Source: a virus
Lineage: Duplodnaviria; Heunggongvirae; Uroviricota; Caudoviricetes
Length of the DNA: 9,242 nucleotides
IMG/VR virus record: IMGVR_UViG_2529293240_000018
Direction: 5' to 3' (one strand)
Shown piece after piece: positions 1-8,307 of this stretch. Below the pieces are notes generated by a model. That model searched no databases. It worked only from the letters and a program-made list of their open reading frames with translations, and was not told the origin of the DNA. The first letter of the stretch is position 1, and each line of letters begins with the position of its first letter. A program made the translations under genes and the position numbers.

Positions 1-717
1 GTGAAAGTACTCAACGAGCTAAGGCAGTTTTATCCTCTTGATGAGCTTCTCAGGGCTGCGGAGATACCGCGCAGTACGTTTTATTACCATCTAAAGGCTC
101 TCAGCAAGCCTGACAAGTATGCGGACGTTAAAAAGCGTATTGGTGAGATTTATCACGAGAATAGAGGCCGATACGGATACCGTAGGGTAACGCTGTCTCT
201 TCATCGAGAAGGGAAACAGATTAACCATAAAGCTGTTCAGCGCCTGATGGGAACCCTCTCACTTAAAGCAGCGATTAAGGTCAAGCGATACCGCTCTTAC
301 AGAGGAGAGGTAGGGCAAACCGCCCCTAATGTTCTCCAAAGAGATTTCAAGGCTACGCGGCCAAACGAGAAGTGGGTTACCGATGTTACTGAATTTGCAG
401 TCAATGGGCGCAAGCTGTATTTGTCTCCAGTAATAGATCTCTTCAACAACGAAGTTATTTCTTACAGCCTTTCGGAAAGACCAGTGATGAACATGGTTGA
501 GAATATGCTCGATCAGGCATTCAAAAAGCTTAATCCTCACGAGCATCCTGTTCTGCACTCTGACCAGGGATGGCAGTATCGTATGAGAAGATATCAAAAT
601 ATCCTTAAAGAACATGGTATTAAACAAAGCATGTCCAGAAAAGGCAATTGTCTGGATAATGCTGTGGTGGAGTGTTTCTTTGGAACCTTAAAGTCGGAGT
701 GTTTTTATCTTGATGAG
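1..717 (+). mobile_element. IS150 (IS3 family) internal fragment; the 5' part with orfA lies upstream of the window and the 3' end is replaced by IS2
   Basis: Translation from position 1 matches my recollection of IS150 OrfB (InsK: MKVLNELRQFYPLDELLRAAEIPRSTFYYHLKAL...[30 protein letters not shown]). Homology stops exactly at 717, where the IS2 terminal repeat begins. Confidence 0.8.
1..717 (+). pseudogene. insK: IS150 transposase OrfB (InsK), truncated after codon 239 by the IS2 junction
   Basis: The 267-aa ORF in the track (1..804) is chimeric: codons 1-239 are InsK-like, and the last 28 aa ([28 protein letters not shown]) are translated from the IS2 right inverted repeat. The DDE region (HSDQGWQY ... 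[10 protein letters not shown]) is retained but the C-terminal ~44 aa are missing. Confidence 0.8.
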
Positions 718-728
718 TGGATTTGCCC

Positions 729-1634
729 CTATATTTCCAGACATCTGTTATCACTTAACCCATTACAAGCCCGCTGCCGCAGATATTCCCGTGGCGAGCG
801 ATAACCCAGCGCACTATGCGGATGCCATTCGTTATAATGCTCGAACGCCTCTGCAAGGTTCTTTGCTGCCGTTAACCCGTCTGGTTTGGGCATGATACTG
901 ATGTAGTCACGCTTTATCGTTTTCACGAAGCTCTCTGCTATTCCGTTACTCTCCGGACTCCGCACCGCCGTGTTCTTCGGTTCAAGTCCCAACATCCGGG
1001 CGAACTGGCGTGTTTCATTAGCCCGGTAGCATGAACCATTATCCGTCAGCCACTCCACTGGAGACGACGGAAGATCGTTGCCGAAGCGGCGTTCCACCGC
1101 TCCCAGCATGACGTCCTGTACTGTTTCACTGTTGAAGCCGCCGGTAGTCACCGCCCAGTGCAGTGCCTCACGATCACAGCAGTCCAGCGCGAACGTGACA
1201 CGCAGTCTCTCTCCGTTATCACAGCAGAACTCGAACCCGTCAGAGCACCATCGCTGATTGCTTTCTTTCACGGCTACTCTGCCTGTATGTGCCCGTTTCG
1301 ATGGCGGTACAGCAGGTTTTCGCTCAAGCAACAGCGCATTCTGGCGCATGATCCGGTAAACACGTTTGGCATTGATCGCAGGCATACCATCAAGTTCTGC
1401 CTGTCTGCGAAGCAGCGCCCATACCCGACGATAACCATACGTGGGCAGCTCTCCGATAACATGGTGTATACGGAGAAGCACATCCGTATCATCAGTGTGA
1501 CGACTGCGGCGGCCATCCATCCAGTCATCGGTTCGTCTGAGAATGACGTGCAACTGCGCACGCGACACCCGGAGACAACGGCTGACTAAGCTTACTCCCC
1601 ATCCCCGGGCAATAAGGGCGCGTGCGCTATCCAC
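729..1634 (-). CDS. insD: IS2 OrfB (InsD), DDE transposase catalytic part, 301 aa
   Basis: Translation (GTG start) [30 protein letters not shown]... matches IS2 InsD. It overlaps the end of orfA in the -1 frame. Confidence 0.9.
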
Positions 1635-1957
1635 TTTTTTGCCCGTCCATATTCAACGGCTTCTTTGAGGAGTTCATTTTCCATCGTTTTCTTGCCGAGC
1701 AGGCGCTGGAGTTCTTTAATCTGCTTCATGGCGGCAGCAAGTTCAGAGGCAGGAACAACCTGTTCTCCGGCGGCCACAGCAGTAAGACTTCCTTCCTGGT
1801 ATTGCTTACGCCAGAGAAATAACTGGCTGGCTGCTACACCATGTTGCCGGGCAACGAGGGAGACCGTCATCCCCGGTTCAAAGCTCTGCTGAACAATTGC
1901 GATCTTTTCCTGTGTGGTACGCCGTCTGCGTTTCTCCGGCCCTAAGACATCAATCAT
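1592..1957 (-). CDS. insC: IS2 OrfA (InsC), 121 aa, HTH/leucine-zipper regulator
   Basis: Translation [56 protein letters not shown]...[20 protein letters not shown] is IS2 InsC as I recall it. Confidence 0.9.
1634..1640 (-). promoter_or_regulatory. IS2 programmed -1 ribosomal frameshift heptamer A AAA AAG in the orfA/orfB overlap
   Basis: Minus strand reads GGGCAAAAAAGTGG; in the orfA frame this is gcA AAA AAG tgg. IS3-family elements use this motif to make the OrfAB transposase (established knowledge). Confidence 0.55.
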
Positions 1958-2031
1958 CTGTTCTCCAATGACTAGTCTAAAAACTGTATTAAGACTATCA
2001 CTTAAATAAGTGATACTGGTTGTCTGGAGAT

Positions 2032-2916
2032 TCAGGGGGCCAGTCTAGCAACAGTGAACGTTGTGTTGCCATTCATATCAATACCCGGCGGAGCCTTACG
2101 CCAGATGGCCGCCGCGATATCTGCCGGGCTGCCGCCGTACACGCCAACATAAAGCGAACCGGGTGTTAATGGATACTGACTGACTCCGGCTTTTTGTTCT
2201 GTTTTTTTCGGATTATGGGTGACGTAAACATCCACCACGTTTTCCACCGTGGAGAGTATTTCACCCCGGATGGCTTCCAGAATATTCCGGGCATTACGGG
2301 CAACTGAATTACGTCGGCGGTTTTCAAAGTCCGCACGGGTTTCCTCATCGCTGCCCGGCACACCGGCACTGGCGTTAGTGACACCTGACCAGCCAGGTAT
2401 TGCCTTATAAATTTTATTCAGCGTCCCCACAGGACAGCCGACGGGGCCGGTGGACAAATTCAGAAATACCGCATCAACCTGCCCTGATGCGCCGATAGTG
2501 ACGTCTGACTGACTGACATACTTATAACCGGCCTCATCCTGCGCCATACTGCCCGCCGGGATCAGCGTGCCAACCAGCCCGGTACAGGTCGCTGTTACTG
2601 TCGTACCTGTGGCCCCGCGGCGCTCCAGGAAATAAATCCTGCCTATTGCATCCTGAAAGCGACCACTGGAAAAGTCAGGGTTGATCTGGTTAACGATATA
2701 CAGCAACTGATCGTTTTTATCCGCAATAATGGCGCTTTCGCTGGATGCAAGTTGTCCCTGCGGACTGCTCAGACTGGTACTCATGGCCCCGCCCAGCGCC
2801 GCCGAAAAATCAGCAAGCCTGCCGCTCAGAATATCCGCTTCATCCGGCACATTCAGCCCGCTATCCGAAATCTGTACAGCGGGCACTGCGGTAGAAAAAG
2901 ATTTATTTTCACTCAT
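2032..2916 (-). pseudogene. Phage baseplate J-like protein (Mu gp47 / P2 gpJ-like), C-terminally truncated at the IS2 junction
   Basis: 294-aa ORF; the last 4 codons (RLAP) and the stop come from the IS2 terminus (2032..2047). Position downstream of gpV-like and gp46-like genes, with a 4-bp start/stop overlap with the upstream gene. Internal segment ETRADFENRRRNSVARNARNILEAIRGEILSTVENVVDVYVTHNP loosely resembles the gpJ core. Family call is by synteny and weak similarity. Confidence 0.5.

Positions 2917-3939: not shown

Positions 3940-3959
<20 letters not shown>
3282..3959 (-). CDS. Phage baseplate assembly protein V / central spike (Mu gp45 / P2 gpV-like), 225 aa
   Basis: C-terminal glycine-rich apex motif ...GGSNIGGIDFGNHVHGGVESGGSTTQGPR resembles the P2 gpV C-terminus (..HTHKHPGDSGGTTGSP..). 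Overlaps the upstream gene by 20 bp, typical of a phage morphogenesis operon. Confidence 0.65.
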
Positions 3960-5616
<1,657 letters not shown>

Positions 5617-5685
5617 TGGAGCACCTGTGTTGTTCTGAGGTGAGCATATCACCTCTGTTCAGGTGGCCAAATTCAGTGTGCCACT

Positions 5686-5967
5686 TCACTTTAGCTCACC
5701 GTTTTGCAGGAGAATGTCGAGCACATCCATCTGGTCGATTTCAACCAATCTACGAAGAACATAAGCGGCATCTATACCTACCTCTTCGTTTCGCTCGGCT
5801 TTAAGCTCAGCAATGCGCTTTGCGATATTAGCTTTTATTAGGTTTTTGCATCCTTGTACGGCGGCAGAATCCTCACTGTAACCCGCCCTGATGGCTGCTT
5901 GCGTGGCATTGAGATCTTTCAGGTACTCACGGGCAAACAGCTCTTGTTTGTCGGTGAGCTTTGCCAT
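5686..5967 (-). pseudogene. Phage terminase small subunit (TerS), N-terminal 93 aa, C-terminally truncated by IS911
   Basis: MAKLTDKQELFAREYLKDLNATQAAIRAGYSEDSAAVQGCKNLIKANIAKRIAELKAERNEEVGIDAAYVLRRL... has the typical small-terminase N-terminal motif (MAKLT.KQE.F..EYL.D.NATQAAIRAGYS). The stop codon is the TGA of the IS911 terminus. A GGAG Shine-Dalgarno sits about 10 nt upstream of the ATG. Confidence 0.75.
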
Positions 5968-6098
5968 TATTTGTGCTCCGTTTATCCGTTAAAAGGGATA
6001 TCAGTTAAGTTATCCCGTGTAGGGTATAAGCCATTATCAAGCCCACCAGTAGATGGACTTTGTAATGAAGAGCCGTTGTGAAAGTAGCTCTCAGGTTG

Positions 6099-6302
6099 TC
6101 ATTTTTCCCTTTTCTGCCTACCTGCCCACTGTTTTGCAATGTACAGGCAGTCATCGAAAACTCGGCCTTTTCTGCTGGCTTGTGAACAACGGCGGTAATG
6201 CTCCACCGCCATGTCAGCGCCAGTCATAGCCGCGTTCTGGTCGTACCCAAGCTTTATTAACTCGGTTGTTACATTTTTATGTATGAAATCAATCGGAGTC
6301 AT
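6099..6302 (-). CDS. Hypothetical small phage protein, 67 aa
   Basis: Open frame MTPIDFIHKNVTTELIKLGYDQNAAMTGADMAVEHYRRCSQASRKGRVFDDCLYIAKQWAGRQKREK, co-oriented with and upstream of terS. Its start codon overlaps the stop of the upstream small ORF (ATGA). No family recognised. Confidence 0.45.
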   Translation of the reverse strand: MTPIDFIHKNVTTELIKLGYDQNAAMTGADMAVEHYRRCSQASRKGRVFDDCLYIAKQWAGRQKREK

Positions 6303-6415: not shown

Positions 6416-6489
6416 GAGAGCGCTATGAGGTAGCCTGAGTTTAACGGACACTCCTTCCTGAAATAGAATGGCATCAGAAGGAGCTAATA

Positions 6490-6792
6490 ATGAGCAGAAA
6501 AACCCAACGTTACTCTAAAGAGTTCAAAGCCGAAGCTGTCAGAACGGTTCTTGAAAATCAACTTTCGATCAGTGAAGGCGCTTCCCGATTATCCCTTCCT
6601 GAAGGCACTTTAGGACAATGGGTTACCGCCGCAAGAAAAGGGCTCGGTACTCCTGGTTCCCGCACGGTGGCTGAACTGGAATCTGAAATTCTGCAACTGC
6701 GTAAGGCGTTAAATGAAGCTCGCCTTGAGCGAGATATATTAAAAAAAGCAACAGCGTATTTTGCACAGGAGTCGCTGAAAAATACGCGTTAA
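6490..6792 (+). CDS. IS600 OrfA (HTH/leucine-zipper regulator), 100 aa
   Basis: MSRKTQRYSKEFKAEAVRTVLENQLSISEGASRLSLPEGTLGQWVTAARKG...DILKKATAYFAQESLKNTR; intact. Confidence 0.85.
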   Translation: MSRKTQRYSKEFKAEAVRTVLENQLSISEGASRLSLPEGTLGQWVTAARKGLGTPGSRTVAELESEILQLRKALNEARLERDILKKATAYFAQESLKNTR

Positions 6793-7668
6793 TCGAACAA
6801 TGGCGACAACAATTTCCCATTGAAGCGATGTGTCAGGTATTTGGTGTATCCAGGAGCGGTTATTACAACTGGGTACAGCATGAACCCTCAGACAGAAACA
6901 AAGTGATGAGCGGCTAAAACTGGAGATTAAGGTGGCACATATCCGCACTCGCGAAACATATGGAACCCGGCGGCTCCAGACGGAGCTGGCAGAGAATGGC
7001 ATCATCGTTGGTCGTGACCGACTGGCACGTCTTCGTAAGGAGCTAAGGCTACGCTGTAAGCAGAAACGCAAGTTCAGAGCGACTACGAACCCGAACCACA
7101 ATCTGCCAGTTGCGCCAAATCTGCTGAACCAGACGTTCGCTCCTACAGCACCAAATCAGGTCTGGGTGGCGGACCAAATCAGGTCTGGGTGGCGGACCTG
7201 ACGTATGTTGCCACACAGGAGGGATGGTTGTACCTCGCTGGCATCAAAGATGTTTATACGTGCGAAATTGTCGGCTACGCCATGGGAGAGCGCATGATAA
7301 AAGAGCTGACAGGTAAAGCCCTGTTTATGGCGCTCAGGAGCCAGCGCCCACCTGCCGGGCTAATCCACCACTCTGATCGAGGTTCACAGTACTGCGCATA
7401 CGATTACCGGGTCATACAGGAGCAGTCTGGTCTGAAAACATCAATGTCGCGTAAAGGTAACTGTTACGACAACGCTCCGATGGAAAGCTTCTGGGGAACG
7501 CTGAAAAATGAGAGCCTGAGCCACTATCGTTTTAATAACCGGGATGAAGCCATCTCAGTAATACGGGAATACATTGAGATTTTCTACAATCGTCAGCGTC
7601 GTCACTCTCGTCTGGGGAATATCTCCCCGGCAGCCTTCAGGGAAAAATATCATCAGATGGCTGCTTAA
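6741..7668 (+). pseudogene. IS600 OrfB transposase, disrupted by a 1-bp deletion and a 23-bp tandem duplication
   Basis: OrfB homology runs through three frames: frame 0 from the A7 slippery run at 6741-6747 (..FPIEAMCQVFGVSRSGYYNWVQHEPSDR); frame 2 from about 6896 (KQSDERLKLEIKVAHIRTRETYG...APNQVWVAD); frame 1 after the duplication (LTYVATQEGWLYLAGIKD...HSDRGSQY...[18 protein letters not shown]...). Confidence 0.8.
7151..7196 (+). repeat. Perfect 23-bp tandem duplication (2 copies of CCAAATCAGGTCTGGGTGGCGGA) inside IS600 orfB
   Basis: Read directly: 7151-7173 and 7174-7196 are identical. It duplicates the codons for PNQVWVAD and shifts the frame. Confidence 0.9.
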
Positions 7669-7691
7669 AAAAGAACAAATGGTAGTGTCCG

Positions 7692-8307
7692 CTATTGCCA
7701 GTACACCTCATAACCGCGTTCGATCGGTTTAGGGGGAAGTGGTGCCTGAACGATGACATCACACCGGCTACAGGCCAGTTTGGGACGTATGGTTTCGATA
7801 ACTTTAAAGGCGGTATTAATGATATCCAGTTGCTCTGAGATTGTTTCCCCCATTTCTTTCAGAACACCTCCACAGGCCGGGCAACTGGTTTCAGCAGGCA
7901 GAAGGCGATGTGTCTCCCGGGGAAGTTCTGCCGGCAGCGGTTTTCGTGAAGATTTTCGTCCCGGGAATTCAGGCTTACTGGCGATCGGGTTTTCTGACGG
8001 GGGACTGGTGTCAGGTGAATCTGTGACTGACGATGCATCTTCCAGAAGATTTCTGGCTGTGTTCAGCCGGTTTTCCAGTTCCGACAGTCGTTTTTCTGCC
8101 TGTCGGATCTGATTTTCAAGCTTATGACGCTTTTTCTCTGAACTCTGGCCGAACAACATACGACGCAACCTGTCGAGTTGCGCTTTTCAGCCGTTCAATT
8201 TCCTGCTCATAGCCCGCGACCTGACAGGCATACTGTCGAAGCCGACTCTGTTGCTTACGCAACATGGCTTTAAGCAGCTCAATATCATCGGGGAGTTCAT
8301 TGTTCAT
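7692..8307 (-). pseudogene. IS66-family transposase TnpC, N-terminal ~205 codons only, with an internal frameshift
   Basis: The 61-aa (8122..8307) and 158-aa (7692..8168) ORFs are two frames of one gene: MNNELPDDIELLKAMLRKQQ...EQEIERLK | AQLDRLRRMLFGQSSEKKRHKLENQ...CPACGG.... Removing one base from the T4 run at 8184-8187 (plus) rejoins them. Homology ends at 7711; the last codons come from IS600. Confidence 0.75.

Follow-up and report, generated by a model that had tools for sequence, protein, structure and literature searches.

The window, by which we mean the whole 9,242-nucleotide stretch of DNA analysed here, is 100% identical to a contig of Shigella flexneri SFJ17B (AFOW01000022.1, assembly GCA_000217895.2) and holds a copy of IS911 set between two truncated phage genes (Table 1). 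IS911, which occurs in Shigella and E. coli and belongs to the IS3 group of the IS3 family, is one of the most closely studied insertion sequences. The copy in the window shares with it the TGAAGTGG...CCACTTCA ends, which are imperfect terminal inverted repeats of the form 5'-TG...CA-3' (24 of the 36 terminal bp match, counted by eye), two ORFs in 0/-1 phase, the ATT start of OrfB and the A AAA AAG heptamer through which OrfAB is made. The expected N-terminal helix-turn-helix and C-terminal DDE integrase-core (rve) domains are likewise present, with PF01527 and PF00665 listed on a 399-aa gene call, and the fused product read from the deposited sequence scores 380 bits (residues 19-384) against positions 1-368 of 369 of the IS3 family transposase model NF033516, whose cut-off is 160 bits. 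At the nucleotide level, query positions 161..1411 share about 99% identity with E. coli elements that carry the annotation 'IS3-like element IS911 family transposase', and the alignment to the 1249-bp copies of S. flexneri SFBU1023 contains 0 mismatches and 1 gap (1248/1249 positions match), an identity at the level of an isoform (taken as roughly >=95% over about 1250 bp). Many other copies encode the identical product of the 279-aa orfB ORF. The element itself is an ordinary IS911 of the S. flexneri type that lies in a degraded prophage, and the initial annotation was correct in calling its ends and orfB intact: no damage is seen in either end, in the slippery site, in the ATT of orfB or in the frame that follows.

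Table 1. Positions of the IS911 copy, its reading frames and the flanking phage genes in the window.
Feature	Position	Strand	Remarks
IS911 copy, 1248 bp	4441..5688	-	left end TGAAGTGG... from 5688 (5688..5681); right end ...CCACTTCA to 4441 (4448..4441)
Upstream ATG inside the element	5645..5647	-	IS nt 42-44; shares the OrfA frame if the run is A6
GAGGTGAT, Shine-Dalgarno-like	5648..5655	-	abuts the upstream ATG
Canonical orfA ATG	5614..5616	-	frame differs from that of the OrfA body
A-run after the orfA ATG	5608..5613	-	six A, then G at 5607; other IS911 copies A7
ORF opened by the canonical ATG	5500..5616	-	38 codons, MKKEILAQ...AFPQ*, out of frame
orfA as read with A6	5315..5647	-	110 aa, ending ...NSSR
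A AAA AAG slippery heptamer	5360..5366	-	programmed -1 frameshift; intact
orfB frame	4449..5372	-	intact; open from IS nt 317; ATT 5369..5367; integrase-core (rve)
Phage terminase small-subunit gene, truncated	5686..5967	-	93 aa; PF03592; EGM61817.1, S. flexneri SFJ17B
Phage baseplate hub gene, 3' part	3940..4455	-	cut by the IS911 right end

The flanks of the element point to a history beyond simple insertion. The TGA stop of the terminase stump is formed by the first three bases of IS911, and the hub gene, which runs uninterrupted for 870 bp in E. coli VL7S7, is represented by its 3' part. A simple IS911 insertion is bordered by direct repeats of 3 bp (occasionally 4 bp), as can be seen at other copies (for example, ATC/ATC in L025), whereas the copy in the window has AAG on one flank and CCG on the other. 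This is consistent with a deletion, or with recombination between IS copies, following insertion. Because a truncated terminase gene is joined to a truncated hub gene without target duplication, we infer that the element marks an IS-associated deletion of the prophage genes formerly located between those for terminase and baseplate. Neither junction was found in any record of 5,426 complete E. coli genomes, in which the IS alone or the separate flanks were matched; a phage collection gave matches to the IS and none to a junction, and the 93-aa terminase fragment, used as a probe for a second assembly, is on record in one contig only.

The window also contains IS2, IS600 and ISSfl3, a content typical of the usual Shigella IS clutter. 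Two of these neighbours carry changes of their own. The IS600 copy (about 6416..7710) has a 23-bp tandem duplication, ACCAAATCAGGTCTGGGTGGCGG, in its orfB (window 7150..7195, plus strand), which splits orfB into gene calls of 89 and 159 aa and is absent from other IS600 copies. When compared with four other IS2 copies, the one in the window (718..2047, minus strand) lacks 1 nt at about 1985 (TAATAC-AGTTTTT); this deletion is outside any single-base run, some 63 nt from the IS2 left end and upstream of an intact orfA.

Reading frames at the start of orfA

The deposited minus strand reads ...ggtgctccaATGAAAAAAGAAATTTTAGCGCAGAG around the orfA start and, over a longer stretch, ...CAGGTGCTCCAATGAAAAAAGAAATTTTAGCGCAGAG. 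The ATG is followed by six As where the IS911 norm is seven, and this shortened run (A6, as opposed to A7) is present in the deposited sequence and deviates from that norm. It is also the sole difference from the finished S. flexneri copies, and no single-base run in IS911 is longer than A7. The body of OrfA is shifted by one base relative to the canonical ATG, which opens a short nonsense frame instead; the same 38-aa product has been called in two other drafts. When one A is inserted in silico, the 100-aa OrfA returns with the N-terminus MKKRNF. This exact A7-form protein is on record in 662 contigs under names such as 'IS911 ORF1', and the relatives ISEc52 and a Cronobacter IS3-family transposase begin with MKKRNF or MKRRNF. 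In the deposited sequence orfA is not read from its canonical ATG (MKKRNF...), and this departure from IS911 is probably an artefact. The initial annotation had made three claims here, namely that six As stand where seven are needed, that the canonical ATG is out of frame and that MKKRNF is the authentic N-terminus, and all three agree with what was found; comparison with the SFBU1023 copies gave A7 in the latter, with the single gap of the alignment in the run.

Its account of the start codons fared less well. It had named a GTG spanning the IS boundary as the sole in-frame upstream start, without a ribosome-binding site, and had expected, if A6 is real, little or no OrfA or OrfAB from this copy. 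The 124-aa ORF that opens at this GTG (5689) includes an in-frame ATG inside the element, and directly before that ATG stands GAGGTGAT, which pairs over eight contiguous bases with the 3' end of 16S rRNA. The computed duplex energy is -12.4 kcal/mol, as against -7.7 kcal/mol for the canonical ATG, a value at about the 1st percentile among all 316 ATGs of the window. Of the three candidate starts, the upstream ATG has the strongest ribosome-binding complementarity, with a short spacing of 4 nt after GAGG. A consensus promoter scan of positions 5300..6100 found no promoter. At the IS boundary itself, the TGA of the terminase stump overlaps the GTG of the 124-aa ORF as GTGA (5686..5689, minus strand), a stop-start arrangement through which translation could be coupled, provided that the stump is expressed.

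The upstream ATG of A7 copies is the first codon of a short upstream ORF, 16 codons long, which overlaps the start of orfA. A6 joins this ORF to orfA, so that a 110-aa OrfA and a 399-aa OrfAB can be read. The exact 110-aa protein is on record in 30 contigs, and its match to the NCBIfam IS3 transposase model begins at residue 19. Simulated -1 fusion gives an OrfAB of 399 aa with A6 and 389 aa with A7, and each of these two exact sequences has a database entry as an IS911 family transposase, the longer one being listed at NCBI as 'IS3-like element IS911 family transposase' (WP_236745547.1). NCBI's own gene call on AFOW01000022.1 (L024 3598..4796) is 399 aa long and begins at the upstream ATG. 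Judged from the reading frames, a loss of OrfA and OrfAB does not follow even if A6 is real. Taken as a whole, the earlier reading stands for the A6 run, the lost frame, MKKRNF and the intact ends and orfB, and does not stand for the start codons or for the loss of OrfA/OrfAB.

The A6 run in other genomes and in the draft assemblies

Outside the drafts, A6 is rare. Among species-representative genomes, 23/23 exact matches are A7, including 13/13 in S. flexneri SFBU1023; the 23 also include copies from ECMA0423. Complete E. coli genomes hold 972 records with the exact A7 87-mer vs 20 with the exact A6 86-mer, and metagenome contigs hold 52 A7 vs 2 A6 copies (n=54), each of the latter two with 95% identity and about 24 gapped positions. 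In the E. coli records and metagenome contigs A6 then has a background frequency of about 2-4%. In some elements A6 is genuine. For instance, P0003, an IS911-like orfA of E. coli O121:H19 and others, has A6 in 145 contigs, complete genomes among them, and its A6 is genuine, fixed in an orfA that has truly decayed. P0003 has the same N-terminus as the OrfA of the window and A6 in the same run; however, it differs in a second frameshift, an A5G at the slippery site (...EILKRLPRS), and in further amino acids, whereas the window copy is otherwise intact. The exact A6 86-mer also occurs on ETEC plasmids in several assemblies, and in the one inspected it lies in an IS911 fragment that IS30 has cut. 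The natural A6 copies that were inspected are thus otherwise decayed and the window copy is otherwise pristine, which was counted in favour of an artefact. IS911 start regions were also met in two assemblies of unrelated organisms, a Clostridia MAG (L004, CAMBHV010000085.1; 93% identity to the window over 429 bp) and Actinacidiphila (L017, JANCAF010000141.1; 96% over 312 bp), and both are probably contaminating enterobacterial contigs.

The S. flexneri-type A6 products, on the other hand, are concentrated in drafts of 2011-12 with adjacent accession series (AFGV, AFGY, AFHD, AFOW, AKMV, AKMX, AKMZ, AGRC and ADUV). In these drafts the insertion sites with A6 are numerous and unrelated to one another (AFHD, AKMV and AFGY each have at least 5), and A6 is patchy where the same site can be compared between assemblies. 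At the fructosidase/IS4/integrase/focA site the run is A6 in AKMZ, AFHD, AFGV and AKMV (in AKMV seen from the right junction only) and A7 in SFBU1023 and ECMA0423. The yfhM site has A6 in AFHD and AKMV and A7 in AFGV; the integrase-403 site has A6 in AFHD and in the 2457T draft ADUV01000068.1 (in the latter, right junction only) and A7 in G1663, SFBU1023 and ECMA0423; and one further site has A6 in AFHD (L031) and A7 in NEDR (L058). In a sample drawn through OrfB, and for this reason free of selection on run length, 1/5 draft copies are A6 vs 0/4 copies from G1663 and NEDR. A6 is not confined to drafts, as it is also found in the long-read complete S. flexneri genomes CP026871, CP026765, CP026768, CP044152 and UGYS01000001, with one insertion site being A6 in three long-read assemblies (L047, L051, L054).

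The same drafts shorten other long runs. Drafts were compared site by site with good references, leaving out the A6 site, and the discordant runs numbered 1/723 for runs of four bases, 2/358 for five, 1/50 for six (longer in the draft), 3/21 for seven (all shorter in the draft) and 1/2 for eight (shorter in the draft). Over 5085 bp the draft L033 differs from G1663 by 0 substitutions and 3 run-length differences. True divergence should yield more substitutions than indels, given general mutation rates, so this pattern indicates consensus errors at long single-base runs. The draft batch therefore shows length-dependent run shortening without matching substitutions, a statement that holds at the level of the batch, as SFJ17B itself offers one further case that is ambiguous. 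This lies in the IS600 copy at window 7667..7672 (plus strand), at the 3' end past the orfB stop, and reads A6 vs A7 in L001, L011 and L025, with one SFBU1023 IS600 copy (L002) likewise A6. A global deficit of 7-base runs in the drafts was also sought, and showed no clear difference after allowing for locus selection; the window itself keeps two other 7-base runs, at 2202..2208 and 6741..6747. ECMA0423 was excluded from the reference set of the site-by-site comparison because it is itself full of 1-nt deletions. This assembly (CP178302.1, labelled 'E. coli'; L007, L009, L011, L013, L015 and L018-L020) has dozens of such deletions per few kb, counted relative to SFBU1023 and the drafts, and looks like an unpolished long-read assembly.

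Origin of the shortened run

The explanation that we favour, and hold to be likely, is that the missing A is an under-call of a 7-base run in the 2011 draft consensus and not a mutation of the bacterium. The true copy would read ATG AAA AAA AGA AAT TTT (MKKRNF) and would make OrfA and OrfAB in the usual IS911 way, OrfAB through the programmed -1 frameshift at A AAA AAG. The weight given to this explanation follows from setting the error frequency of the batch, roughly 15-35%, against the 2-4% at which A6 is really found. It is favoured further by the identity of this IS911 to finished S. flexneri copies at every position but the run, by the A7 found in other assemblies at sites where drafts have A6, by the 0/13 A6 copies of SFBU1023, and by the length-dependent shortening of other long runs in the drafts. 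The features resemble the known run-length under-calls of flow-based and long-read consensus sequences: the longest single-base run of the element is one base short at many copies and sites of one batch, and other runs of 7 or more bases are shortened as well. The batch was presumably sequenced by pyrosequencing (454), although the argument rests on the error pattern and not on the platform. The initial annotation had added the caution 'if real' and named a read pile-up at the homopolymer as a check, and this was apt; it gave too little weight to an artefact, for A6 tracks the drafts with run-length-dependent shortening.

Several observations make the under-call less certain. The resemblance is a pattern of the batch, and A6 is also found in long-read complete S. 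flexneri genomes. The fructosidase-site copy is A6 in 4/4 of the drafts that hold it, which could reflect inheritance instead of error. The junction of the window is on one contig only, the density of 7-base runs in the draft loci overall is not clearly depleted, and the two 7-base runs retained in the window show that under-calling is not universal.

Alternatively, A6 may be a genuine and recent 1-nt deletion that arose when replication slipped in the A7 run, in this one copy. We regard this as unlikely. In its favour, A6 is inherited elsewhere, as in the 145 contigs of P0003 and on the ETEC plasmids, and it occurs in 2/54 metagenome contigs and in several complete S. flexneri genomes, including the site shared by three assemblies. 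The element also sits in a decaying prophage beside an IS600 disrupted by its 23-bp duplication, a change that is no run-length error and so indicates that real decay is ongoing in the region. What speaks against a genuine deletion is, above all, frequency: a base rate of about 2-4% must be set against at least 20% in the draft batch. In addition, the copy is otherwise identical to active copies, the drafts shorten other long runs alike in the DNA compared, and whether one and the same insertion site is A6 or A7 varies from assembly to assembly in a patchy way.

If the deletion is nevertheless real, the canonical start is lost and its ATG would lead to the 38-aa nonsense peptide, leaving only N-terminally extended forms of OrfA and OrfAB, with 12 residues in place of MK, from the upstream ATG, whose presence together with GAGGTGAT fits such a scheme. 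These forms would need transcripts that cover the upstream ATG, supplied by read-through from the terminase fragment or by a minicircle junction promoter. If tRNA-Lys slipped by -1 on AAA AAA G, traces of wild-type protein could be made as well. Such a copy would be partly disabled and, because its ends are intact, still mobilisable by the transposase of other IS911 copies.

A reading that we hold to be very improbable treats A6 as a real allele, kept by selection or arising again and again, with the A7 run serving as a mutational switch. Such a switch would toggle between the canonical OrfA start and OrfA/OrfAB fused to the upstream ORF, forms that would differ in expression or activity, with gene conversion or transposition carrying A6 from copy to copy. 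The idea draws on the recurrence of A6 at many sites in several S. flexneri assemblies, on the fusion retaining every domain (IS3 transposase model, residues 19-384, 380 bits) and on the upstream ATG having the best ribosome-binding complementarity of the three candidate starts. However, other strains have A7 at the very positions where drafts have A6, and for this reason spread by transposition was rejected. The recurrence also tracks the assemblies that shorten other long runs, no A6-specific substitutions mark a lineage, and for phase variation in a repair-proficient cell a run of seven bases is short. Only marginally more credible is the proposal that A6 is real and the A7 run a slippage-prone switch, thrown repeatedly at different S. 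flexneri IS911 copies, with loss of one A giving extended OrfA and OrfAB of altered expression or activity.

The shortened run is thus most likely not real, and would be ordinary if it were. Its biological weight is small, since a one-base change in a run of one IS911 copy is routine decay even when genuine. The practical consequences are for annotation and for IS censuses. In these draft Shigella assemblies, long single-base runs make any count of 'defective' or 'intact' IS copies unreliable, and the artefact appears to have been carried into protein databases as seemingly distinct IS911 proteins of 110, 124 and 399 aa, one of them with a RefSeq WP_ accession. A minor by-product of the analysis concerns wild-type IS911, whose 16-codon upstream ORF (window 5597..5647, minus strand, as it would lie with A7) ends just past the orfA ATG and has a strong Shine-Dalgarno match.
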